A stretch of DNA of 64,000 nt from the NCBI GenBank assembly GCA_963813715.1, contig CAWFAK010000017.1:704001-768000 (forward strand). Direction: 5' to 3'. Made by a program: the position numbers and the translations under genes. The notes under the pieces are model-generated. The model did no database searches. It was given only the letters and a program-made list of their open reading frames with translations, and was not told where the DNA came from. The DNA is from an uncultured Planctomycetaceae bacterium. Its GTDB lineage: Bacteria; Planctomycetota; Planctomycetia; Planctomycetales; Planctomycetaceae. Positions within the stretch are counted from its first letter, which is position 1. Every line of letters starts with the position of its first letter. This document shows positions 9,997 through 62,756 of the stretch, piece by piece.

Positions 9997-11265
9997 TTAG
10001 AACGAGCTGTCGGTGAGCGGCTTGGCTCCCTTATAAGTCTGTAGGCGGCACAGCACCGTAATGCCCGTGTTCTCGCTGATCATGCGCGCCGAACCGTCGC
10101 ACAGAGCGATGCCAACCGAGCCGGGGTGGAACGAATACCAGTTGTTCGACCAGACATTGATGCAATTGAGGAAGCAGACGGCCTGATTCAAAGTGTGAGC
10201 ATTCAGGGGAGTCGGGAATGCAGGCCCACCGGGGTTAAAGAAACTGGTGCCGGTCATGGTCTGAAATGCGCTGTTGTAACAAGACCAGCAGCCGCCCGGG
10301 TTGTGTTGGATGGTGCCGGGCCCGGTGCCAAAAACGGCGGCCAGAGAGGGCTGCTTGACGCCGCGAATCCACAAGTCCGGACGGCCGGCCAATTCGGCGA
10401 ACAACACGGTGGTCGACGTGCCGTCAGTGATCTTGTCGATCGAGACATTGAATTGGAATACGTTGATCGGCCCCGCACGGTAGGCCTCTGGCTGACAACT
10501 GTTTGCGAGCAAATAGGCGGCGCCGAGCGGCGTGCACTTGTCTTCGTAACCGCCCACGGCCGTGTAGTCCAAGGCCCCTGACAACTGCCGAGGACCGAAG
10601 GCGGCGGCACAGGGACTCGGACCCGCGAAGCAGGGGCATGTGTCCGAGCCGACCTCGACAAACGGATTCTGGGTTCGAGGAGCTGAAGGGCAAACGAACG
10701 CCGGAATCACCGCGGCTCCCGGACGCGTGGACGAGCACGGATCCTGGCACGGATCCGTCACGTTCTTATAGGTGTAGAGTTTTCCGCAGCCACAGCAGGC
10801 CAGCGGCTTTTGGTTCAAGAGCGCGGGGTGCTCACAGCACGGCGGCAGCATCGGACTGTTCATGCAGATCTTGTTGTAAACGGTCGTCGCTTCGATCAAG
10901 GGAAGCAGCCGTTCGCCCCAGTAGTGGAAGTTGAACGAAGACGTGAACAGGCCGGCTTTGCAAGGGCACGGGGTGTAGGGGGCAAGAGGCCCACCGCCGT
11001 TGCCAGGCGGGCAGCAGCAGATCAGGCACTTGGGGATCGCCGTTGGGAACGTGTAGCTGATCGCTGGCGTGAATTGGTTGTTGATGTCGTGATAGTTGTG
11101 CTCGGCCAACGCCATCTGCTTCAGGTTGTTGCGGCATTGCGTGCGGCGTGCCGCCTCGCGGGCCGCCTGAACGGCCGGCAGCAAGAGCGCGATCAAGACC
11201 GCAATGATGGCGATCACGACCAATAGCTCGATCAGCGTGAACCCTGACTTTCGTTGTCTTGGCAT
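9997..11265 (-). CDS. Cys-rich DUF1559 prepilin-type protein, copy 1
   Basis: [47 protein letters not shown]...CDGS (H-X9-DG); about 27 Cys by hand count. Confidence 0.92.
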
Positions 11266-11388
11266 AAACTGTCCCCTAATTCGGAAAGAAGGCCACAAAT
11301 TTGGAGCTGGCCCGCCGCCAGCCGTAAGAAACGCTCATTCGGCCTGGGAAAACTCCTCGATCGACCACTTCGCCCACGGACGCCCTCT

Positions 11389-11491
11389 ATCAAACATGCT
11401 AAAAAACTGGCTGTCAATAAATTGGCACATGGAAGTGGCGGGAAAATGTTCAAATGGCAAAAATTCTCCATGAAGTGTTAGTTTTATCACA
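11389..11491 (-). promoter_or_regulatory. Sigma70-like promoter plus CRP-like box
   Basis: TTGACA (11412-11417), 17 bp, TTTGAT; AAGTGTTA-N6-TCACACTT with core at 11476-11491. Confidence 0.6.
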
Positions 11492-11985
11492 CTTCGGATG
11501 GGGTCGACGGCTGGTCGGCTGAAAAATGCGCACTTCGAAGGCCGCGAGGGGGCCACCGCGCGGGGACCATCTGCGGCGGCACGCAGGAGAGCGGGTTCCG
11601 GCGTTGACGGCTGGGGCGGTGTGTTACCGCTCGGATGCGACGGGGAGTCGAAGCGGCGGCGAAGAAACGCGGCGAGACGTCGGCCCGACAAAGAGGGGCG
11701 GAAACGCCAAATACTACGCACTGACGGGAGGGGCCGATCGGCGTCGCGTCGCGACGACGCGCTTGCCGATGCGTTCAATAACCACAACCGCGCATGCGAG
11801 GGGGCGACGGGCGTTTCGACTCGCTTGGGTCGCCCGCGATGGCCGGCGCTCGGCCGTCGGAGCCACACGGGCTCACCGTCGAGACAGCGAGGGAGCGAGG
11901 GAGCGGGCCGAGCGCTAAACGCGATCAGCCGTTCTGACCGAGCCGTTGGTCACGGCTCGAGAGCCTTGTGGGGGCACAAAGCCGC

Positions 11986-12593
11986 TTATCGCGACAAGCG
12001 CCGGACGGCGTACTGGCCGACGGGGACGCCCTCCTTGCCGGCAATCGACAGGTTGAATTCGTAGTCGCTCTTGCCCGGTTCCGCGACCTCGATGTTGAAA
12101 TCTTTTTCGTTCTTGTTCTTTTCCGGATCGCTGTACAGGTTCTTGAGCCCGTCCGGACCCACGTATTCCCGCGAAAGCATGCGCCCCACCGAGCGCGGCC
12201 CGGCAGTCTTCGGCACGTGCAATTGGGCAAACGTCACCACGTATTTTCCGGGAGGCACCCCATCCCCGTGCAGGTACGAAGTGAAGGTGAAGTTCCCGTC
12301 AGGGTCGCACGAGGCAACGTAGGCCGGTCCCTCCTTGGGGATGGCCAGGTGCGCTGGGTCGTTCAGAATCACAAATAGCGTGGTGTCTTTATCCGGAGGC
12401 TGGCCGTCGATGCTGGCATGGCCGGCGACTTTCGCCACCGGCTTCTGCTTGGCACCCTTGGCGGCTTGCGTAAGTTCGTCCTCCCGGGCTCCGTGGCTGC
12501 TCCCGGTGCAACCCGAGAAGACGCTCGCCGCCACCAGCGAAAGAACAATAAACGTCAGCGGATAAGCCGCGCGCGGCCCGCATTACGGAGCAT
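11986..12593 (-). CDS. DUF1559-partner lipoprotein, copy 2; 5' end out of frame in a CG run
   Basis: Lipobox FSGC, GPDGLKNLYSDP. RBS-preceded ATG 12593 is 2 nt out of frame with the body (ORF track 11986..12534). Confidence 0.75.
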
Positions 12594-12644
12594 AGCTCGA
12601 ACTCCAGTCTCCAAAGCCATTGTTAAAAAGCTGCTGCAAAAACA

Positions 12645-12683
12645 GGCCAAACCGGGATGGATTTCCTCCATCCCGGCTGGGCC
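12645..12683 (-). terminator. Intergenic stem-loop
   Basis: CCGGGATGGA-TTTCC-TCCATCCCGG, followed by a T-rich tract on the minus strand. Confidence 0.6.
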
Positions 12684-12742
12684 GAAACTACGAGATCAAG
12701 AGGCGGACCAGAGACGCCAGCCCGCCCACGGTCAAACACGAA

Positions 12743-13993
<1,251 letters not shown>

Positions 13994-14109
13994 AACCGTC
14001 CCCCTAATTCGGAAAGAGAACACCACCGACCCCGGACTGGCAAAAAACCAGCGTAAACACTTCACTGGACTGAGATTCGGATCTGAATGACAACGCCCGA
14101 ACAAGGCTC

Positions 14110-14213
14110 ATAAGAATGGATAAAATTTGCGCTGTCAATCAAAAAGGGGCGGCGAACGGAGCCAAAACGTCAAATTCCGGGAATTTATTGAAGGATTTGT
14201 GAACTGCCTCACA
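14110..14213 (-). promoter_or_regulatory. Sigma70-like promoter plus CRP-like box
   Basis: TTGACA (14133-14138), 17 bp, TCTTAT; TGTGA-ACTGCC-TCACA at 14198-14213. Confidence 0.65.
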
Positions 14214-14803
14214 TTTGGGCACTCCGTCGGCGTTGACTCGGCATTTAATGCCGCTGAACCGGACTTACGGCGAGTGCCGCCGCTGTAAGTTAAGAATTTG
14301 CCACTTTAATCGAGCTGCGGTCAGTCCGCGATGACAAGAGTGTCAAATATTCGGCATTCATTGCTACATTCTTAGCACGCAAAATGCGGCAAAATAGGCA
14401 CTATGTGCCATAAAATAAGCACAGTGCGCTGCATGGCAGTTTTCTAGCCAGAGAACGCGGGACCCCCGCAGGCCCCGACGGAGACGCGATGGTGCGCGAA
14501 TGTTGGCGCAGCCGCCCCCGACTTGTTCAGTGGTGCGGGCGAAAGAATCGCGCCGATCCGCCGCGTCGAGGGGATGCGCGTTTTAGCACATCCAGGCCGA
14601 TCGAGGAGTTCTGTTTCCCCCGAGCGTTGGTTTTGCGTGAGTCAAACACTGAGCGGCCGAGTCTCGCCTGCGCGAAATTTAAGGCGCGCGAGACCCATAG
14701 GCGGCCACGCGGACTCGGCCGCGCTAATTGGCGGAGATCAGCGTGGAGCAGTCAGTCGCGGCGCGTGCCGCGGTTCAAGAGCCTTGTGGCGGCGCAAAGC
14801 CGC

Positions 14804-15411
14804 TTATCGCGACAAGCGCCTCACGGCGTACTGGCCGACGGGGACGCCCTCCTTGCCGGCAATCGACAGGTTGAATTCGTAGTCGCTCTTGCCCGGTTCC
14901 GCGACCTCGATGTTGAAATCTTTTTCGTTCTTGTTCTTTTCCGGATCGCTGTACAGGTTCTTGAGCCCGTCCGGACCCACGTATTCCCGCGAAAGCATGC
15001 GCCCCACCGAGCGCGGCCCGGCAGTCTTCGGCACGTGCAATTGGGCAAACGTCACCACGTATTTTCCGGGAGGCACCCCATCCCCGTGCAGGTACGAAGT
15101 GAAGGTGAAGTTCCCGTCAGGGTCGCACGAGGCAACGTAGGCCGGTCCCTCCTTGGGGATGGCCAGGTGCGCTGGGTCGTTCAGAATCACAAATAGCGTG
15201 GTGTCTTTATCCGGAGGCTGGCCGTCGATGCTGGCATGGCCGGCGACTTTCGCCACCGGCTTCTGCTTGGCACCCTTGGCGGCTTGCGTAAGTTCGTCCT
15301 CCCGGGCTCCGTGGCTGCTCCCGGTGCAACCCGAGAAGACGCTCGCCGCCACCAGCGAAAGAACAATAAACGTCAGCGGATAAGCCGCGCGCGGCCCGCA
15401 TTACGGAGCAT
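14804..15411 (-). CDS. DUF1559-partner lipoprotein, copy 3; same 5' frameshift as copy 2
   Basis: Translation identical to 11986..12534. Confidence 0.75.
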
Positions 15412-15462
15412 AGCTCGAACTCCAGTCTCCAAAGCCATTGTTAAAAAGCTGCTGCAAAAACA

Positions 15463-15501
15463 GGCCAAACCGGGATGGATTTCCTCCATCCCGGCTGGGC
15501 C
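15463..15501 (-). terminator. Intergenic stem-loop (duplicate)
   Basis: Identical to 12645-12683. Confidence 0.6.
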
Positions 15502-15560
15502 GAAACTACGAGATCAAGAGGCGGACCAGAGACGCCAGCCCGCCCACGGTCAAACACGAA

Positions 15561-16811
15561 CTAGAAGCTGCTGTCCAGAACGGCCTTGCCACCCTTGTAG
15601 GTTTGCAAGCGGCACAGCACCGTCAGGCTGGTGTTCTCGCTGATCATGCGAGCCGAGCCGTCGCACAGGGCGATGCCCACCGAACCCGGGTGGAAGCTGT
15701 ACCAGTTGTTCGACCAGAAGTTGATGCAGTTCAGGAAGCAGACCGGCGTGCCGGTCTTGGCCTGAGCGACCGTGGGCTGCGGCAGACCCTGGTAGCCCGA
15801 ACCCGACATGACCTGGTACGTGTTGTCGATGCAAGCCCAGCATCCGCCCCAGCTGGCGTGAATATAAGTGATACCATTGGCGGTGAAATACGACGTTACC
15901 GAGGTCTGCTTTACGCCGCGGACCCACAGATCGGGACGACCGGCCAACTCGGCGAACAGGGCCGTGGTCGAGGTGCCGTCGGTGATCTTGTCGATCGAGA
16001 CGTTGAACTGCCAGACGTTGATCGGCCCAGCCCGATACAGTTCAGGCTGGCAGCTGTTCTGAAACAGATAAGCCGCCCCGAGAGGAGTCGCATCCTCATA
16101 GCCGCCGACCGAGGTGTAGTCCGACGCTCCGGCAAGCACCGGCGGCCCGAACAAGCACAGCGCCCCGGCACCCCCGAAGCAGTTGCACATGATCGAGGTG
16201 GTTTCGACGAACGGATTGTTCGTCCGCGGCGACGACGGGCAAACGAAGCCCGGAATGACCTGAGCGCCCGCGCGGATGTTTGCGCAGGTGTCTTTGCACG
16301 GGTTGGTGATGTTCTTGAAGGTGTACGGCTTGCCGCAGCCGCAGCAGGCCAGCGGCTTCACATTGAGCTGGCCGGCGTTCTCGCAGCAGGGGGCGAGCAT
16401 CGGGCCGTTAAAGCAGATCTTGTTGTAGACCGTTGTCGCCTCCAGGAACGGCAACAGACGTTCACCGTAGTAATGGTAGTTAAAGCTGGAAATCCAGATA
16501 CCGTTCTTGCAGGGACACGGGGTGTACGGCTTGCCGACGCAGCAGGCCGGGTCGCCGCAGTTGGCGGCAATTGCCGCGCAGATCACCTTCGGGAAGGTGT
16601 ACGACATGGCCGGCGTGAGCTGGCTGTTCACGTCGTGGTAGTTGTGCTCGGCCAGTGCCATCTGCTTCAGGTTGTTGCGGCACTGCGTGCGGCGGGCGGC
16701 TTCCCGCGCTGCCTGGACTGCTGGCAACAGCAAGGCGATCAGGACCGCGATGATCGCGATCACGACCAACAGCTCGATCAGTGTAAACCCTGACTTCCTC
16801 ATTCTCAGCAT
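15561..16811 (-). CDS. Cys-rich DUF1559 prepilin-type protein, copy 3 (416 aa)
   Basis: About 26 aa differences from copy 2 and about 26 Cys, both by hand count. Confidence 0.92.
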
Positions 16812-16928
16812 AACGACCCCCTAATCTGGATTAAGAGACATCCTCTAACGCTTCAGTGCTAAAAAATTAGCGTAACCATTTCGCTCAACTGGCTTTTTCA
16901 TTTCACGCCGCAATCGACGACGTGTCCT

Positions 16929-17033
16929 ATCAGAACGGCTGAAAAATTAACTGTCAATCAGGAAACACGTAGATGGATGCTGAAAATGTTTGTTTTCAGG
17001 AAAAAAAATGCGCGTTTTGTGAACTGCCTCACA
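16929..17033 (-). promoter_or_regulatory. Sigma70-like promoter plus CRP-like box
   Basis: TTGACA (16952-16957), 17 bp, TCTGAT; TGTGA-ACTGCC-TCACA at 17018-17033. Confidence 0.65.
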
Positions 17034-21841: not shown

Positions 21842-22011
21842 CGTAGGCGAGGTGGCGAAAGGGTCGCGACCCGGACCCCAGCGCTAGATTCGGGACGCTC
21901 GAACATACCGGCCCGACCAAGTTGCCGCCAGTTCCAATCGTCCGTTCGGAAGGTACCACCGTTACGATTCGCCGCTTCACGTTCGGTGGCTTCTCCGGGT
22001 CGCTCATGCCG

Positions 22012-22422
22012 TCATCTTAGCGGGGCTCGACTCTCGCCCATTTGGCTTAATCCTTCCCATGGCCGCCCGCTCCAGTATCGCAGCTCGATGATCTCACCGT
22101 CCTGCGGGTAGGCTATGGCACTAGTCGGATCCTCCGACACCCAAACATCATCGACCCTGCCAGGCACGCCCCATACCGCGATGACCGATTTGTCGCTGAG
22201 TAGGTCGTTGACGAACTGTCGCACCGCGTCGGCCGCCGGCAATCCTGACAAGGCGGCGAGGATTTCGGCATGAGTGTGCCAGGGGTATCCGTCGAAGCCC
22301 AGCGCTGTGTCGCCGCTGGCGTCCACAACCACGAGGAACCGCAAGCGGCCGTCGGGGCTGACGTGCTCTTCGACGGTCTGCACGGCGACCTCGGGTACGA
22401 TCCATTCTTCGTTGTCGCTCAT
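22012..22422 (-). CDS. Hypothetical protein
   Basis: 136-aa ORF with globular composition; starts 22 bp from repeat copy R1. Confidence 0.6.
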   Translation of the reverse strand: MSDNEEWIVPEVAVQTVEEHVSPDGRLRFLVVVDASGDTALGFDGYPWHTHAEILAALSGLPAADAVRQFVNDLLSDKSVIAVWGVPGRVDDVWVSEDPTSAIAYPQDGEIIELRYWSGRPWEGLSQMGESRAPLR

Positions 22423-22443
22423 GCCATCACCCTAGTCCGTGAT

Positions 22444-22645
22444 AGTGTCCGGACCGGATTCAGACTTCGTCTTAAACCGCATCTGCAGCGCCTCTTAATT
22501 CCGGTCTAAATTTAAATTGTGAAGATGAGACCGGACAGGACCTGACTCGACGTTTCGTGCTCACCATTGAGCTCATTAGGGGGCTTGGGGTCGAGCCGTG
22601 TGACGTACCCACCGGTCCGCGACCGCCGGTTCTCCTGTCCAAATG
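22444..22645. repeat. Unexplained ~205-bp repeat, copy R1
   Basis: AGTGTCCGGACCGGATTCAGACTTCGTC...CCGGTCTAAAT...AATTGTGAAGATGAGACCGGAC..GACCTGACTCG; first ~120 bp align without gaps to R2 and R3. Confidence 0.88.
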
Positions 22646-22803
22646 ACGGGATTATGCCGTTGAAAAAGCACAACGTGTCCGCGAAAAAACGGCCGGACTC
22701 CACTACGGATTGGGCGTGAGGAAGCGCCCTGACGGAAATCCGCCCCTTGGTGGTGGGATCTGTGTATGGTGCAGATCCATTTCCAACCACACGGAGCGGA
22801 TCA

Positions 22804-23936
22804 ATGGCAACGACGAAGCTGCGGGCAATTCAATGTGTACATTGCGGGAAGCAATTCAGCTACGTCCACGAGGAACCGGAAAGCCCGTTCTATATGAATG
22901 TCGGCTGGCTTGCTCTGTGCGACTGTGGAGGACGAACGGCAGTCCACGGGACGATCAAGAAAACGAACTTCGAATTTAGCGCCGTGTCTGGACTTGATCG
23001 GGGCCTTTATGTGAATGCAGAAATTGAATCCCCGCGGCTCAGATCCGTCTATCGCACCTTCATCAGGAACATGGATCAAGTGATCGCTTTTGGAAGGCTC
23101 CCCCACTTGTTCAAGCTACATTACGAATCATTTCTGCCCGTCTTTCAGATTACGGATCAGAGAATTATTGCGGACTCGGGCCTGATGGTGCGGTCGCAAA
23201 TTGGGCTTCCGATTGACCCGACAGTGATTGATCCGGACCTTAAGTATGTGATGTGTCGCGGCATGCGCAATGGATTGGCGGGACTGTTGTCGTCAATGAT
23301 CACCGGCACTTGGACGGCCTTTGAAACTTTGTCCGGGGACTTGTGGGAGGCGGCATTAAATACCGCTCCCACGAAGCTACGCTCTTGCCCGGCAGGCCAA
23401 ACAGGATCGAACGGAAGACCGGCTCGCGCTCAACCAAACAGCAAGATCCCGTCGGCCAGGCCAACGCCGAACAAAAACCTGAGGAAAAGACCGAGGAAGA
23501 TGCCCCGCCGGATAGAGCGGTTTCTCTTCGCTCGATGAGTCGCGCGAGCCGTGGCAAATTCAATCTTCGGCATCTGATGGGGACGGTTCAGCGAGAGCAA
23601 CTTGAATTGGACTCACTAAAAGGAATTCGAGAAGCCTACAGCAGGGCTTTTGATAAGCCCTTTGAGAAGGATATCGACGAATCTCTGGCTGATCGGGATC
23701 TTGACACGCTTCAAGCCGTGAGGAACCTGCTGGTTCATAGGGCCGGTGTTGCCGACCAAAAGTATTTAGATCGCAAAGATAAGTTTCCAGCGCTGCCGCG
23801 CCTCGCGAAAGGCGATCGCCTCAAACTGACGGGGGCATTTGCTGCTGATCGCATACTGCCCGTGATGAGGATTGCACCAAAGCTCGCCGTAGCAGTCGAT
23901 CGTCGCGTGCGACGGGAGGGCGCGGCCGGTGACTGA
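22804..23936 (+). CDS. Hypothetical protein with N-terminal Zn ribbon and C-terminal HEPN-like Rx4H motif; frameshift near 23380
   Basis: CVHC...CDC; TWTAFETLSGDLWEAALN; DLDTLQAVRNLLVHRAG. Two overlapping ORFs (22747..23538, 23343..23936) join into one protein. Confidence 0.6.
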
Positions 23937-24111
23937 GAAATTAGAGATCAAGTGCGATTGGTGCGACGGCCAAGGACGGATCGATGCCGGGGACAACAGG
24001 CCGTATGAGTGTCCGGTGTGCCAAGGATCGGGGTTTGAGCCGACCGCAGATGGAGAGAAAACTCTCGCGCTCGTGCGTCACAACTTTCGCCCGATGTTTG
24101 GACGGAGGTAG
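23929..24111 (+). CDS. Small Zn-finger protein resembling anti-TRAP (RtpA)
   Basis: LEIKCDWCDGQGRI...CPVCQGSGFEPTADGEKTLALV; overlaps the upstream stop by 8 nt. Confidence 0.6.
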   Translation: MTEKLEIKCDWCDGQGRIDAGDNRPYECPVCQGSGFEPTADGEKTLALVRHNFRPMFGRR

Positions 24112-24223
24112 AACCGTGACGATTAGTCCTAGGTCAGTCCCGTAAGCATTCGTTTATGGACAGGCTGGCGCCGAGCCGGTTCGCGCTTCCTCCATTGTCA
24201 CCGGCATAATCCCGCCAAATGAA

Positions 24224-24656
24224 AGTGTCCGGACCGGATTCAGACTTCGTCGTAAACCGCATCCGCTGTGTCCTTTAACTCCGGTCTAAATGGGAATTGT
24301 GAAGATGAGACCGGACCAGACCTGACTCGACGCTTTGTGCTCAAAGTCGAGCCCGCTCGGGATGGCTTGGATCGGGGCTGGCGGGTTCGCCCCCAAGGTC
24401 CGCAACGCCCGGTCTTCGTGTGCAAAAGAAAGTGTCCGGACCGGATTCAGACTTCGTCGTAAACCATATCCGCTGCGTCGCTTAACCCCGGTCTAAATCC
24501 GAATTGTGAAGATGAGACCGGACCGGACCTGACTCGCAGTTTTGTGCCCACAGTCGGGAGCCCAACCCGGGGGCCGGCTCGGGGGGCGACCCTTCAGGCT
24601 CGCTCACCGGGTCCGACCGCGGGTCTTCGGGTGCATATAAAAGTGTCCGGACCGGA
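24224..24656. repeat. Tandem copies R2 (24224), R3 (24431) and fragment R4 (24642) of the ~205-bp repeat
   Basis: Same core as R1 at periods of 207 and 211 bp; the second halves are more diverged but share GGTCCG..GGTCTTCGNGTGCA. Confidence 0.9.
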
Positions 24657-25050
24657 CGTGTCGCATCAGATGACCGAATGGACGGCGATCACCGAATGGA
24701 TTACGTCCCAAAAACTCCGTCGGTGCTCCACCGAGCGGCCCGTTGCGGCGATTTCATCCCCGGCGCAAGCCGATCTCGGCCGTCACGACGGGGCCAAATT
24801 CCATTCTGCCACAATTCGTTAGCCAACCAAGATCGGATTTCTACGCCGTTCAGTTCTGTGCAGTTGCGGCCAGAATGCAGACGGGAGATTCGCCTGGGTT
24901 GCCAAAGTTCGGGATGCTCGAACAGACCGGCCCGACCAGGTCGCCGCCAGTTCCAACCCCGCTTCCGGACGCGCGGAAATCGCATATTTCTTTCGCGCCG
25001 CGACGCGGTTAGGATCGGAGCGAATATTCGGAACTCAAGTGGCCGGGCCG

Positions 25051-57122: not shown

Positions 57123-57713
57123 CTAGTTAACGATTGCGTCGATTTGCTGGTCGGTCAGTTTGCTGCGTGTGGCGAGGAGCATTTTGCGAATGTGTCGTTT
57201 CCCCTCGAATCCCTCGGGATGCCCGATATTGCCCAGCGGCGATTCGCTGGTAATCAACATCTTGCCCGTCGGGTCGAAGATGGCGTAAAACGGAATTCCT
57301 TGTCGTTCGTGGCCGGTCAGCCGGTCTGCCACTTCGGCTCCGTGAAGATCGCGCCAGTCGTCGATTTTCAGAAATACGTAGTCCTGCGAGAGCAGTGTCT
57401 TCTGGTCATCGAGCCAGCGTGTCAGCCGGAAACAGGGGCAACAGTAGCGCTGGCTGATGCGGACCCAGACTTTGCGGCCGGATTGCTGGGCGAGGGCGAA
57501 GGCGTGCTCCCATTTTTCACGGGCGTCCGCCGGCGCCGGGGCGTGTTGGCGAATGAACTCCGCCGCCCGTTTGGGGCTTGCCGGGTCCTTCAGATCAATT
57601 TCAATTCGGCCGAGTTCGTGGCCCGCGGGATCCATCGCCAGCGCGAAGACTTTTCCCTTAGCCGGCAGCGGCCAGTTCTTGGATCGCGCCTGCATCGAGG
57701 CCGATGCGCTCAC
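57123..57713 (-). pseudogene. Thioredoxin-fold fragment, probably 5'-truncated
   Basis: VWVRISQRYCCPCFRL, DYVFLKID, GIPFYAIFD, NIGHP; the 5' end runs into sequence homologous to 60350 onward. Confidence 0.6.
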
Positions 57714-58062
57714 CGCGATGATGCCTTCACGCGAAGCGAGGCCGGTCTGCGGATTGGCATCTACGTTTGGTGATTCCTCTGAGTCCGCAATGGCTCATTT
57801 GTTTAGAGGAGTGCGAGGAATCATTTAGGTCAGTTATCGAAAGTGTGAAAGTCCGGCTAATTCCGGCGAATATAAGGTGCTTCTTACACAACGGGGTTTG
57901 CTTTCGTCCCCTTTTCTTGTTCATTGGCCTGGAGAAAACGCGAATGCCAAATTTTCGCAACTGCCGAGGTGTGGATGCCGCGCCCGCTCTGCAGAACCCC
58001 GGTCCATCATCGCGTTATTTCCCGCTGCTTGGATCAGTTGTCCCTTTTGAAAAGGACGAACC

Positions 58063-59407
58063 ATGACGAGGAAGCGGAAGGGTTTCACGCTCATCGAGCT
58101 GCTAGTCGTGATTGCGATCATCGCGGTTCTTGATCGCGCTCTTGCTGCCGGCCGTGCAAGCGGCGCGTGAAGCGGCTCGGCGGTTGCAATGCCGCAACAA
58201 CTTGAAACAGATCGCACTGGCGGAGCACAACTACCACGACGTCCATAGCCTCCTTACGCCCCCGTGGGTGACCCTGATGCAAGGCAAGCCCGGCAAATGC
58301 GGCCCCTATAGCAAGTGCGTTTGCTGCTGGTGCTGCGGATACCACGGCTGCCACATGGACCTCAACTTTCACACATGGCTCGAGTTCCTGTTGCCATACT
58401 CCGAAGCGACCACCGTCTGGAACAAGATCTGCGAGAACGCGCCGCTCTATTCGCCCTGGACGATATGCGGCCAACCTGCCTCTAACATGTGCGGCTGTTC
58501 CGTCGGGACTGCTTGCTACACCGCAGTGTGGACTTACCCCAACTCCGGCGATTGCCAGAAAAACACGTGCAACCCGCAAGGGTGCGCATTTGACCCGTGC
58601 GCCGCGAAACGGCCGGTGGCCCAGGTGATCCCATCGTACGCTTGCCCTTCGGCCCCACGGATCTCCAACCCGTTCCGCGAACACCTCTACATGTTCGGGG
58701 CTTGCTGCGGCGCCTACGTCAAATGCCATCCCGGCCCGGCGTTTACAAATATTTATCGGCTGTCGGGCGCCGCGGATTACATGGCGGTTGACTCAATAAA
58801 AGACGCCCTGCAGACGTGGATTTGTTGCGTCGTCGACACGCCATGCACTCGCTGCAAGTGCGGGTCGCCCGGGTGCAAGAACCCCTATCCTGACGCGAAG
58901 CATAAGTCCCCGCATTGCGGAGCATTGTTCTGCTTTAGAGGCCTGGGACATAACAGCAGCTCCGGCGTGAGTATTGATCAGATTACCGACGGGACCTCGA
59001 CCACGATCCTCTGCGTGGAAAACGCCGGGAAGCCGGATCTCTGGATCCGAGGCGTGAAACACCCCACCACCTTGACTTGCCAAAGTCCGGTGTTGCTGTG
59101 CGGCTGCGGGATTGGCTACTGGAACGGCAACCCCGGCGGATGCTGGGCGTGCTGGAATAATGTGAACCACTACATCACCGGCAGCAACTTTACCGGAACG
59201 GGTCTCGCAGGTAAGAAGCAGCCCACGTGCTTCTTCAACTGCACAAACGAGAACAGTGCGAACGCCATTTACAGTTTTCACCCCGGTAGCGGCGGAGTCG
59301 CAATGTGCGACGGCTCGGCCCGCATGATCAGCGAGGACATCAACGCCGGCGTGTTTGGCAGGCTGCTCAGCTACAGGGGAGGTCAGCCGGTGATGGACAA
59401 CTTCTGA
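58063..59407 (+). CDS. Cys-rich DUF1559 prepilin-type protein, copy 4; frameshift near 58128
   Basis: [22 protein letters not shown] joined to [14 protein letters not shown]; about 38 Cys; SFHPG..CDGS. Confidence 0.9.
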
Positions 59408-59468
59408 GTCGGAGCTTCTGAGTCGGAGCAGCCTCACCTCTGGGAGGCTTTCGACCCGTGCCGAGCGG

Positions 59469-59495
59469 CACTGGCGGGCGATTGGCCCGTCAGTG
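59469..59495 (+). terminator. Conserved intergenic hairpin (second copy at 62106-62132)
   Basis: CACTGGCGGGC-(G/A)ATTG-GCCCGTCAGTG followed by T-rich sequence. Confidence 0.55.
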
Positions 59496-59564
59496 TCCTC
59501 GGTTTCTCTGTTTCGCAAACACTCTCGCTTGAATCCACTTTCCGGTCAGCACACAGGGATCGCC

Positions 59565-60116
59565 ATGATTTCGGGAAACGTTTGGAAATTGATCGGCCGG
59601 TGGTCGCTGCTGGTGCTGGTGCTCGTTGCGGCCGCGGGCTGTTCCGGAAGGCAGTCGTCTGAGTCGCGAGTCAAAAAGGCGCTCGCCGATGCGGAGGCGA
59701 AAGCCAGCGCGCTGTACCAGCTCGCCGGCACCGTGACGGTCGACGGAATGCCGCCGGAATCCAAAGAGCTGAAGTCTCTGGTCGCCGTGCTCTACGATCC
59801 GCAAAAACCCGACGAAGAGCCCGCCTTTACGCTCGTGAGAGACGACGGGCATTTCAACTTCACTGAGGACGGAGTCGAGCCCGGGCATTACGTTTTGGCT
59901 TTTGCGGTTCTCCGGAGGAATCGACGGACCTTCAACGGTCCAGACAGGCTCCACAATCTTTACAACGACCCCGACGTGAACGCCAAGGTTCACCCGGAGC
60001 TGGTCATCGACCACCAGGCGCCGGGTAAAACGGACTACCAATTCAACCTCGAGGTCGTTGGTAAAGAGCCAATCAAATCCCCGGGTCCTCACGCTGTGAC
60101 CAAGGCGGCTAGATAA
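59565..60116 (+). CDS. DUF1559-partner lipoprotein, copy 4
   Basis: AAGC lipobox; GTVTVDG.PP, GPDRLHNLYNDP, PGKTDYQFNL. Confidence 0.8.
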   Translation: MISGNVWKLIGRWSLLVLVLVAAAGCSGRQSSESRVKKALADAEAKASALYQLAGTVTVDGMPPESKELKSLVAVLYDPQKPDEEPAFTLVRDDGHFNFTEDGVEPGHYVLAFAVLRRNRRTFNGPDRLHNLYNDPDVNAKVHPELVIDHQAPGKTDYQFNLEVVGKEPIKSPGPHAVTKAAR

Positions 60117-60733
60117 AACCGTTGCGCGTCTGTTCGGGGGCAACCTGAGCGTTGCGAGTCGTGTTGGTCGGCGCATCTATTTCACGCACGCTGCGGTTGC
60201 CCACAGCCGCGTTTGTCGGAGTCTGCTGACGGCTGCGCAGGCGAATCCCCGGCATGTCCAGCGGCGGGAACGATTGCAGCTGCTTCTGCCGGCTCATCTG
60301 AGTCGCGCTCTCATTGAGTGAGTGACGCTAACGAGATGAGACGCGTTGACTGCATCGACGCCAATGCGCTCACTCGCCGTGATGCCTCGCCGCGCCACTC
60401 GAAATCGGTCCGCTGGTCTGCATCCACGTTTCGTCATTTCTCCAAATGTTTTAGGGCTCACTTGTCCACCGGAAATCGAGAAATGATTTAGAGCAGTTAT
60501 CGAAAGTGTGAAGGTCAGGCTAATTCCGGCGAAGATAAGCCCGTTTTTATGTGCGGGTTTGCTTTCACTTCCCGGTTGTTGTTGATTGACCTGGGCAAAG
60601 CGGGCGAAGGGATAAATTTTCGCACCTGCCGAGGTCTCGGACGCCGCGCCGCCTTCGACAGAGTGGGCCCTAAAACGGTTCATTTCCCAATTCACGCTGT
60701 TGAATAAGTTCTCCAGCCGTAAAGGAAGAGCCA

Positions 60734-62032
60734 ATGACGACGAGGCGGAAGGGTTTTACGCTCATCGAGCTGCTGGTCGTGATCGCGATTATCGCGGTCT
60801 TGGTCGCGCTCTTGTTGCCGGCCGTGCAATCGGCGCGCGAAGCGGCCCGGCGGATTCAATGCCGCAACAACTTAAAGCAGATCGCTTTGTCGGAGCACAA
60901 CTACCACGACGTCCATAGCCTCTTCACGCCTCCCTACATGATTGTGACGCAGGGCTCGCCGGGCAAATGCGGCGCCTACAGCAATTGCGTTTGCTGCTGG
61001 TGCTGCGGATACCATGGCCCGGCGAACTGCTTCAACTGGCATGTCTGGCTCGAATTTCTGTTGCCATTCGCCGAGGGGCAGAACGTCTGGAACAAGCTCT
61101 GCGAGAACGCCCCGCTTTACTCTCCCTGGAAGGTGTGCGGCTGCAAGGACGGTGGCTACACGGCGGCCTGGACTTATCGCAACTCCGGGGATTGCCAGAC
61201 GAACACCATCAACCCGAAACAGTGCGCGTTTGACCCGTGCGCTGCGAAACGGCCGGTGGCCGCGGTGATCCCGACGTACGTTTGTCCGTCGTGCCCGCGG
61301 ATCGCGAACCCGTTCCGCGAACACAACTACATGTTCGGGAATTGCTGCGGCGCCATTCCCTGCTGCCATCCCGGCCCCTGTTATCAGGATATCTATCGGT
61401 TGTCGGGCGCCTCGGATTACATGGCGGTTGGCGCGTTGAAACACTGCCTGCAATGTTACATCTGCTGCGTCCTCGAGACGCCAAACGAGCGCTGCAAGTG
61501 CCGCAAGCACGGCGACGGACCTAATGCTCAGTCCCAACATTGCTCGGTTTTGTTCTGCTTTAGAGGCGCGGGACACTTCGGCAGCCCCGGCGTGAGTATC
61601 GACCAGGTGACCGATGGGACCTCGACGACCATCCTCTGCGTGGAAAACGCCGGGAAGCCGGATCTTTGGATCCGGGGCGTCAAGACCCAAATGTCGAAGT
61701 GCCATGAAAGCCCCTGGTGGCTGTGCGCCTGCGGGATTGGCTACTGGGACACCAACCCTGGCGGCTGCTGGGGGTGCTGGAATAACGCGCTCCACACGAT
61801 CACCGGCAGCAACTACACCGGGACCGGGACCACGGGTGGCGCGGCGCCCACGTGCTTCTTCAACTGCACTAACGAGAACGGCGTGAATGCGCTTTACAGC
61901 TTTCATCCGGGCGCGGGCGGAGTCGCGATGTGCGACGGCTCGGCCCGGATGATCAGTGAGAACATCAGCGCCGTCGTCTTTTCCAGGCTGCTCAGTTACC
62001 ACGGCGGTCAGCCGGTGACGGACAACTTCTAA
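60734..62032 (+). CDS. Cys-rich DUF1559 prepilin-type protein, copy 5
   Basis: [10 protein letters not shown]; about 38 Cys in 432 aa; H-X9-DG. Confidence 0.92.
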
Positions 62033-62198
62033 TTGACAGCGGCCTCCAGGCGAATGGCTCGCTACGGTGTCGTTCCGCCTCAGGAGGCCTTTCAATGCCG
62101 AGCGGCACTGGCGGGCAATTGGCCCGTCAGTGCCTCGGCTTTTCTGTTTCGCAAACAATCACTCGCATCCCCTTTCTGGTAAGCAAACAGGGATCGCC

Positions 62199-62756
62199 AT
62201 GATTTCGAGAAACAGCTGGAAATTGGGGGGCTGGCGGTGGTCGCTGCTGTTGGTGCTTGCCGCCGCCACGGGGTGTTCCAGCCACCAGTCACCCGAGCAA
62301 AGGATCAAACTCGCGCTCGAACAGTCCGGGATGCCGGCGACCTCCCTCTATCCAATTGCCGGCACCGTGAACATCGACGGGCAGCCGCCCACATTCGACG
62401 ATCGGAGGAAGCGTCTGGTCATCACGCTTTACGATCCGCAGAAGCCCGATAAGAAGCATCTCCACACCATGGCAAGAGAAGACGGGAGCTTCAGGTTCAC
62501 GGAAGACGGGATCGGAGCCGGGCACTACGTTTTGGCGTTTGCCGTTCTACGGCGCAAAGGACCGCAGCATTTCGTCGGGCCCGACGCGCTCAACAATCTT
62601 TACAATGACCCCGATCTGAACGCGAAGAGCCACCCGGAGTTCGTCATCGACCACCAGGCACCCGGGAAAAAGGATTATGCCTTCAACCTCGATGTCGCGG
62701 GCAAAGACCCAATCACGTCCCCGGGGCCGCACGCCGTGACCGAGGCCAAACCCTGA
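62199..62756 (+). CDS. DUF1559-partner lipoprotein, copy 5
   Basis: ATGC lipobox; GPDALNNLYNDP, PGKKDYAFNL. Confidence 0.8.
   Translation: MISRNSWKLGGWRWSLLLVLAAATGCSSHQSPEQRIKLALEQSGMPATSLYPIAGTVNIDGQPPTFDDRRKRLVITLYDPQKPDKKHLHTMAREDGSFRFTEDGIGAGHYVLAFAVLRRKGPQHFVGPDALNNLYNDPDLNAKSHPEFVIDHQAPGKKDYAFNLDVAGKDPITSPGPHAVTEAKP

Follow-up and report, generated by a model that had tools for sequence, protein, structure and literature searches.

A predicted HEPN-like RNase gene and a zinc-finger gene as passengers of a transposase-less IS1595-type element in a planctomycete repeat array

We analyzed a window of 64,000 nucleotides (contig CAWFAK010000017.1, positions 704,001 to 768,000) from the assembly GCA_963813715.1 of an uncultured Planctomycetaceae bacterium (hereafter G000; 7.49 Mb, 82.6% complete), with a focus on two adjacent genes, a large one with an RNLLVH motif and a small zinc-finger gene, which lie among copies of a repeat of approximately 205 bp. 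The two genes are most probably passengers of a 1,568-bp, transposase-less insertion sequence (IS) derivative of the IS1595 type, which sits at the junction of two repeat units and was likely moved in trans. The large gene is predicted to encode an RNase of the HEPN type, likely with a role in defence, and the repeat probably serves as a landing site. A previous interpretation made from the letters of the window (the sequence-only reading) had proposed that the repeats bound the cargo. The repeats and both genes are indeed real, but the cargo is bounded by inverted ends that belong to the element and by a duplication of 8 bp.

The element extends from 22647 to 24214 and its inverted ends are perfect over 13 bp (19/22 overall), with the left terminal inverted repeat, of IS1595 type, at 22647–22668 (plus strand) and the right one at 24193–24214 (minus strand). 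The 8-mer CCAAATGA is duplicated on both flanks. Its left copy (22639–22646, plus strand) closes the first repeat copy, and its right copy (24215–24222, plus strand) lies 2 nt ahead of the core of the second. Inverted ends combined with a duplication were found nowhere else in the window and in none of 10 shuffled sequences. Excision of the element together with one 8-mer brings the first repeat copy head to tail with the second, as seen at the junctions of other arrays; the element splits a repeat array that was originally tandem. Both junctions are bridged by contigs from independent sequencing runs (X1, X2, and X7). Other run contigs held joints that skip the cargo, with short sides and foreign letters; these likely stem from other repeat loci and were not counted as empty sites. 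The G+C content of the cassette (55%) is lower than that of the window (62%), as had been noticed before, but the repeats themselves are also at 55 to 58%.

The same ends were found in a close relative (G002), around a 2,928-bp sister element that contains an IS1595 transposase, a helix-turn-helix (HTH) gene and other passengers. The first 66 bp of the window element match the G002 element at 59/66 bases and the final 22 bp at 21/22. The sister element has its own 8-bp duplication, TAAAACAA, located 1 nt ahead of a sister core, and its transposase, frameshifted in the G002 assembly, matched Pfam PF12760 and PF12762 as well as the NCBIfam IS1595 model (140 bits, cut-off 75). No zinc-ribbon DDE transposase is encoded between the ends of the window element. 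Because an element with an IS1595 transposase has near-identical ends and other cargo in G002, the window element is, judged by its sequence, a transposase-less IS1595 derivative and not an autonomous member. Since only a transposase remnant was found in the incomplete G000 assembly, the mover has either been lost or escaped assembly. The ends also fit CGGnnTT, the end consensus of the ISNha5 subgroup, to which the element may belong. The sequence-only reading had suggested that a recombinase acting in trans captured the cargo between repeats. Mobilization in trans is retained, and capture gives way to transposition into the repeat array, given the IS1595-type ends and the target duplication. 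In the course of events that we propose, an internal deletion would have removed the transposase and later moves would have depended on an enzyme supplied in trans. Besides its HTH gene, the autonomous sister IS of G002 encodes a further R-x4-H protein (noticed at L140:7629-8276) that shows a weak likeness to MltR (E 0.003).

The repeat junction receives other insertions as well. At C7:435104-435447, the register of the window element is also occupied by an element of 344 bp, which has IS1595-type ends and the duplication TCAAATGA, and an IS1595 element in G002 (contig C1), for which the other end was not found, stops 2 nt short of the core in another copy. Of all AT-rich 8-mers in the genome, only 1.6 in 10,000 have such a position. 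Among 14 loci with transposases that were examined across the genus, nine showed both ends and duplication; three of these nine abut a window-type or sister core, one abuts another repeat and five abut none. The preference of IS1595-type elements for the repeat junction is, hence, partial. Two loci have the core itself interrupted by an IS1-type insert whose duplication, TCCGGACCG, is 9 bp long (a transposase is present in one of them), an IS1-type end directly follows 4 of 96 cores, and an IS110 lies within the body of a repeat unit at one locus (C7). An apparent IS end at C5:1119143 turned out to be part of a sister repeat.

Repeat cores in the window begin at 22445, 24225, 24432, and 24643, and the units measure 203–211 bp with 156–168 matched bases in pairwise comparisons. 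Copy 1 (22444–22646) ends inside the left target duplication and is separated by the element from copies 2 (24224–24430) and 3 (24431–24641), all three on the plus strand. What follows (24642–24907, plus strand) had been taken for a repeat fragment. A core is present there, but it opens a conserved terminal segment of about 270 bp in which the terminal box CCATTCTGCCACA...CCAAGATCGGATTT (24801–24840) comes after this last core. A profile search of G000 returned 29 repeat matches at 11 loci and three weak core-only matches. The 14-mer core GTGTCCGGACCGGA occurs 64 times against 0.09 expected, and 88 of 96 cores do not fall in any confident open reading frame (ORF). The repeat belongs, as one subfamily, to a larger mosaic that is polar and restricted to the genus, with core-bearing units and then a terminal box: a core lies at most 1.5 kb upstream of 28 of the 37 boxes (background 1.3%) and downstream of none. 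The box (CCATTCWGCCAYA-N10-20-CCAAGATCRGTTTT), with its 37 places in G000, closes a number of distinct repeat subfamilies and is confined to the genus: its full form was present in 7 of 12 genomes within the genus and in 0 of 49 others. The repeat head was multi-copy in only three of 301 genomes of the order, namely G000 (25), G007 (9), and G002 (7), with four or fewer in the others when one mismatch was allowed. The repeat had no match among viruses and plasmids, and an Rfam search gave three chance matches far under the threshold.

The Rx4H motif next to tandem repeats had also suggested an RNA-antitoxin module (type III or AbiF-like), in which RNA from the repeat would neutralize the HEPN protein, and contigs from RNA libraries do include the stretch. 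We consider such a module highly improbable. The repeat or its core was found at none of 93 loci with homologues of the large gene (22 genomes and 71 metagenome contigs; 73 distinct loci), the remaining 10 repeat loci of G000 carry other insertions or none and lack the large gene, and the transposon ends separate this gene from the repeat. The repeat folds like its shuffled versions (z of 0.01) and shows no covariation (term of -0.05, two-sided change in 1 of 25 pairs). In the RNA-library contigs, flanking genes are at similar depth; as these runs were available as contigs only and depth on the repeat sums many loci, such depth says nothing on expression. The refuting outcome that the sequence-only reading had set for itself was observed and goes against the RNA-antitoxin idea: homologous genes occur without the repeat, and the repeat is scattered independently of them. 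Rather than acting as an antitoxin, the repeat likely offers a landing site to the IS1595-type element.

The arrays vary between strains: among the 10 orthologous sites located in G002, the array was absent at six and present at four, and one more site was not located. It could be proposed that the array is an integron-like platform where some site-specific enzyme swaps modules at the GTGTCCGGAC core, with the HEPN cassette as one module. The polarity of the arrays, their closure by a conserved box, their differences between close strains and their variable small genes would fit such a platform. However, IS ends plus a duplication characterize all inserts whose two ends could be read, both termini of the HEPN cassette agree with those of an IS1595 element, and no recombinase family recurs at the 37 boxes, where only IS transposases do, which makes the platform unlikely next to IS1595-type transposition. 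We also looked for a mover of the repeat itself. The 11 tyrosine recombinases of the genome were rejected, as no family recurs beside the boxes, and so were REP-associated tyrosine transposases (RAYT), none of the eight Y1 transposases found in the incomplete G000 assembly being flanked by the repeat core. A hairpin of the repetitive extragenic palindromic (REP) type at the junction was plausible by eye, but the upstream hairpin (-3.08 kcal/mol) equalled shuffled sequences, and the consensus has no GTAG or CGTC tag. Two Y1 (RAYT-like) transposases, at L011:4130-5030 and C3:75290, have long palindromic flanking repeats of their own that are unrelated to the 205-bp family. In G007, L147:500-2600 contains four tandem blocks of core, IS1-type end and small genes; a second IS end is missing, and the arrangement resembles amplified modules.

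The large gene (22804–23936, plus strand) encodes a protein of approximately 375 to 376 amino acids with an N-terminal Cys4 ribbon and the RNLLVH motif at 23721–23738. These features, as well as the anti-TRAP-like zinc finger described below, had been correctly recognized from the sequence. In the assembly, the gene is split by a one-base gap near 23379. Because contigs of two independent runs (X1 and X8) carry an extra base behind 23379 and an intact 375-aa relative matches both halves (80–81% identity), this frameshift is not natural but an assembly error. Compared with contigs from other runs, bases are missing at 22726, 23379, 24167, and 25040 of the window, and other frameshifts in G000 may likewise be assembly errors. 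A palindromic, putatively operator-like site precedes the gene (22756–22778, plus strand), and a similar one precedes a paralogue at C5:597917. This paralogue and another one at C5:1121620, which is frameshifted in the assembly, lie approximately 870 and 170 bp, respectively, beyond a terminal box, and neither was found to be enclosed by IS ends.

The large-protein family comprises 62 matches at 90% clustering and is covered by no Pfam, NCBIfam or PADLOC model. In its alignment, E174, R305, and H310 are present in 44 of 44 rows and N306 in 43, and although mean identity in the family is 25%, no other polar residues are as well conserved as the R, N, and H and the upstream E. The N-terminal Cys4 ribbon was seen in the window protein and in 9 of the 44 rows. 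In the predicted model (predicted local distance difference test, pLDDT, of 87), E174 lies within a long second helix (152–187) and RNLLVH closes a later one, a placement described for the E and RNxxxH of HEPN domains (PMC3710099). The protein could instead be another helical bundle with an RNxxxH that arose by chance. Foldseek gave no match at E<=0.001 against the Protein Data Bank (PDB) and viral models, rhodopsins lead the structural match list, and a second look at the Foldseek list showed no HEPN. The Pfam HEPN and DUF4145 models returned nothing above noise, and there was no PADLOC match and no PDB sequence match. Against a chance motif stand the conservation pattern and the many different HEPN structures that align over most of their length, the latter being suggestive only; the language-model neighbours of the protein include HEPN-labelled clusters and are leads only. 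A chance motif in another bundle seems rather unlikely to us. The HEPN-like reading made earlier gains support, and from its sequence and its model the protein is predicted to be a HEPN-type RNase of an unnamed family, whose invariant E and RNxxxH, set among four helices, would provide RNase activity.

Elements of the IS1595 and IS1 families carry homologues of the large gene where the repeat is absent, often together with a zinc finger right behind the gene. Transposases of the IS1595 family were present at 21 of the 93 homologue loci and those of IS1 at three (16 and two of the 73 distinct loci), and one or the other at 10 of 35 distinct loci of at least 6 kb. Inverted ends and a duplication surround the homologue at L039, L042, L091, and L209, while a strict test for enclosing ends found none at 44 of 46 loci. 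The zinc-finger gene of the window (23929–24111, plus strand) encodes 60 amino acids of the DnaJ/anti-TRAP type. Its product passes the Pfam Anti-TRAP model PF15777 (46.7 bits, cut-off 32) and is below the NCBIfam anti-TRAP equivalog cut-off (37 vs 65 bits), and TRAP was not found in the incomplete G000 assembly. The anti-TRAP name therefore probably marks the fold and not a tryptophan-related role. The Pfam cut-off was passed in 8 of 251 genomes of the family. Among seven other small anti-TRAP-like ORFs examined, four adjoin the large-gene family and five adjoin an IS1595 or IS1 transposase. The recurrence of the large-gene family and the zinc finger as IS cargo is new in detail.

With the same anatomy, the HEPN-like protein and the zinc finger might be a protein toxin-antitoxin pair that stabilizes the element by addiction rather than a phage defence. 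The stop of the large gene overlaps the start of the zinc-finger gene in the window, a zinc finger lies immediately behind the large gene at 16 of 93 loci, and the operator-like palindrome lies upstream. However, the zinc finger is convergent at 8 of these 16 loci (in the same direction at the other eight), it occurs without the large gene at L217, L218, and L219, and most loci have the large gene without a zinc finger. When the HEPN-like protein and the zinc finger were modelled as a complex (two copies of each, from the cognate pair at L060), the score was 0.00, which speaks neither for nor against. We regard such a pair as possible but doubtful. For the large gene as such, a role in anti-phage or addiction-type defence is likely. 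Of the steps that we propose, defence is the weakest, and the zinc finger would be a frequent, non-obligatory partner.

The array is itself part of a 3-kb island, overlooked in the sequence-only reading and flanked by a 49-bp direct repeat (21889–21937 and 24908–24956, strand not assigned, 45/49 identical). The stretch 21938–24907, including two small genes on the minus strand, is absent in G002, where the 49-bp sequence occurs once at the empty site. This difference may reflect either an insertion with a long duplication or a recombinational loss in G002, and the search beside the terminal boxes gave no enzyme that would account for it. Long flanking duplications at other arrays were searched for and none was clear, with only an 11-bp candidate at L001. 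One of the small genes (21938–22020, minus strand; MSDPEK...) is truncated and has a conserved head, TAAGATGACGGC-ATG, whose family has 30 matches in the genome. The other (22012–22435, minus strand) encodes 136 amino acids, has the same kind of head, abuts repeat copy 1 and has unnamed look-alikes and no Pfam or NCBIfam match. Many unrelated small genes share a common head (CCGCCGC-TAGAAT-GACGGC-ATG AGC GAC, 30 in the genome) and the tail TGAACTCCCGTGCCAATCGC and are stacked behind IS1-type ends. They were seen at 21938–22435 of the window (minus strand), L001:4560-6600, L005:6980-7660, L022:720-1410, L147:500-2580, and C15:102084-109014, and at one orthologous site their content differs between G000 and G002, with one gene in common. 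The 49-bp site (window 21937–21970; runs X2 and X4; L181:700-1900) is also variable, as other strains continue there with sequence resembling an IS1-type end. In a further genome, G003, the gene at this site is, to judge by its motifs, presumably a PP2C-like phosphatase.

A broader proposal is speculative and, in our view, improbable as a whole. The ~205-bp units and the terminal box might constitute an undescribed, genus-specific mobile landing pad that moves between strains by means of a further enzyme (here with the 49-bp duplication), on whose core at least three IS families, including IS1595, would home, and which would collect IS-borne defence genes in the manner of an integron. One cargo would then be a new family of zinc-ribbon HEPN anti-phage RNases with a zinc-finger partner. 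Elsewhere in the window, positions 10000–17000 and 57700–62750 consist of tandem gene blocks of 2.6–2.8 kb with 73–98% identity and prepilin-type N-termini, which we assume to be DUF1559-like and usual in planctomycetes. A scan for promoters and terminators revealed nothing exceeding shuffled sequences.

The vehicle described here is of a known kind. IS1595 elements usually produce 8-bp duplications (PMC8101967), and ISs with passenger genes as well as transposase-less cassettes moved in trans have been described (PMC11891212, PMC3129680). Like the transporter ISs and mobile insertion cassettes (MICs) of IS1595, the window element has short inverted ends, an 8-bp duplication and passenger genes, and like the MICs it has no transposase and would be moved in trans. 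Unlike the known IS1595 MICs, its passengers are an unnamed HEPN-like family and a zinc finger, and several copies occupy one register of a repeat. Insertion at a set position of an extragenic repeat has been described for ISPsy8, ISPa11, ISPpu9/10, and ISRm19/22 (PMC1525189), and here also the position is fixed and rejoining the flanks restores the repeat. In contrast to those cases, the families are IS1595 and IS1, which are absent from the Results section of that paper, the preference is partial and the target is no canonical REP. The listings of our literature searches contained no report of IS1595-type elements targeting one register of a repeat; the common register would extend repeat targeting to the IS1595 family. 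The repeat resembles REP sequences and bacterial interspersed mosaic elements (PMC3733652) in being multi-copy, extragenic, clustered and an IS target, but it has neither a GTAG or CGTC tag nor a hairpin that exceeds shuffled sequences in stability. Its units of 205 bp are joined head to tail and closed by a polar terminal box, and different sequences flank the Y1 transposases of the genome. This polar family and its box form a strain-variable IS hotspot.

As for the cargo, the large protein shares with HEPN RNases (PMC3710099) the Rx4H motif, a polar residue after the R and an upstream acidic residue. In RAZR/PD-T7-4 (PMC13017515), too, a Cys4 zinc ribbon at the N-terminus is combined with a HEPN domain, a likeness of architecture only. 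Unlike these proteins, the large protein has no DUF4145 or PDB sequence match, its approximately 375 residues include large inserts, and few of its relatives have the ribbon. The HEPN-like family and the zinc finger, recurring in IS1595 and IS1 elements, are a ready candidate for an anti-phage screen. The zinc finger has PF15777 in common with anti-TRAP (RtpA) of Bacillus, but adjoins IS transposases and a HEPN-like family instead.
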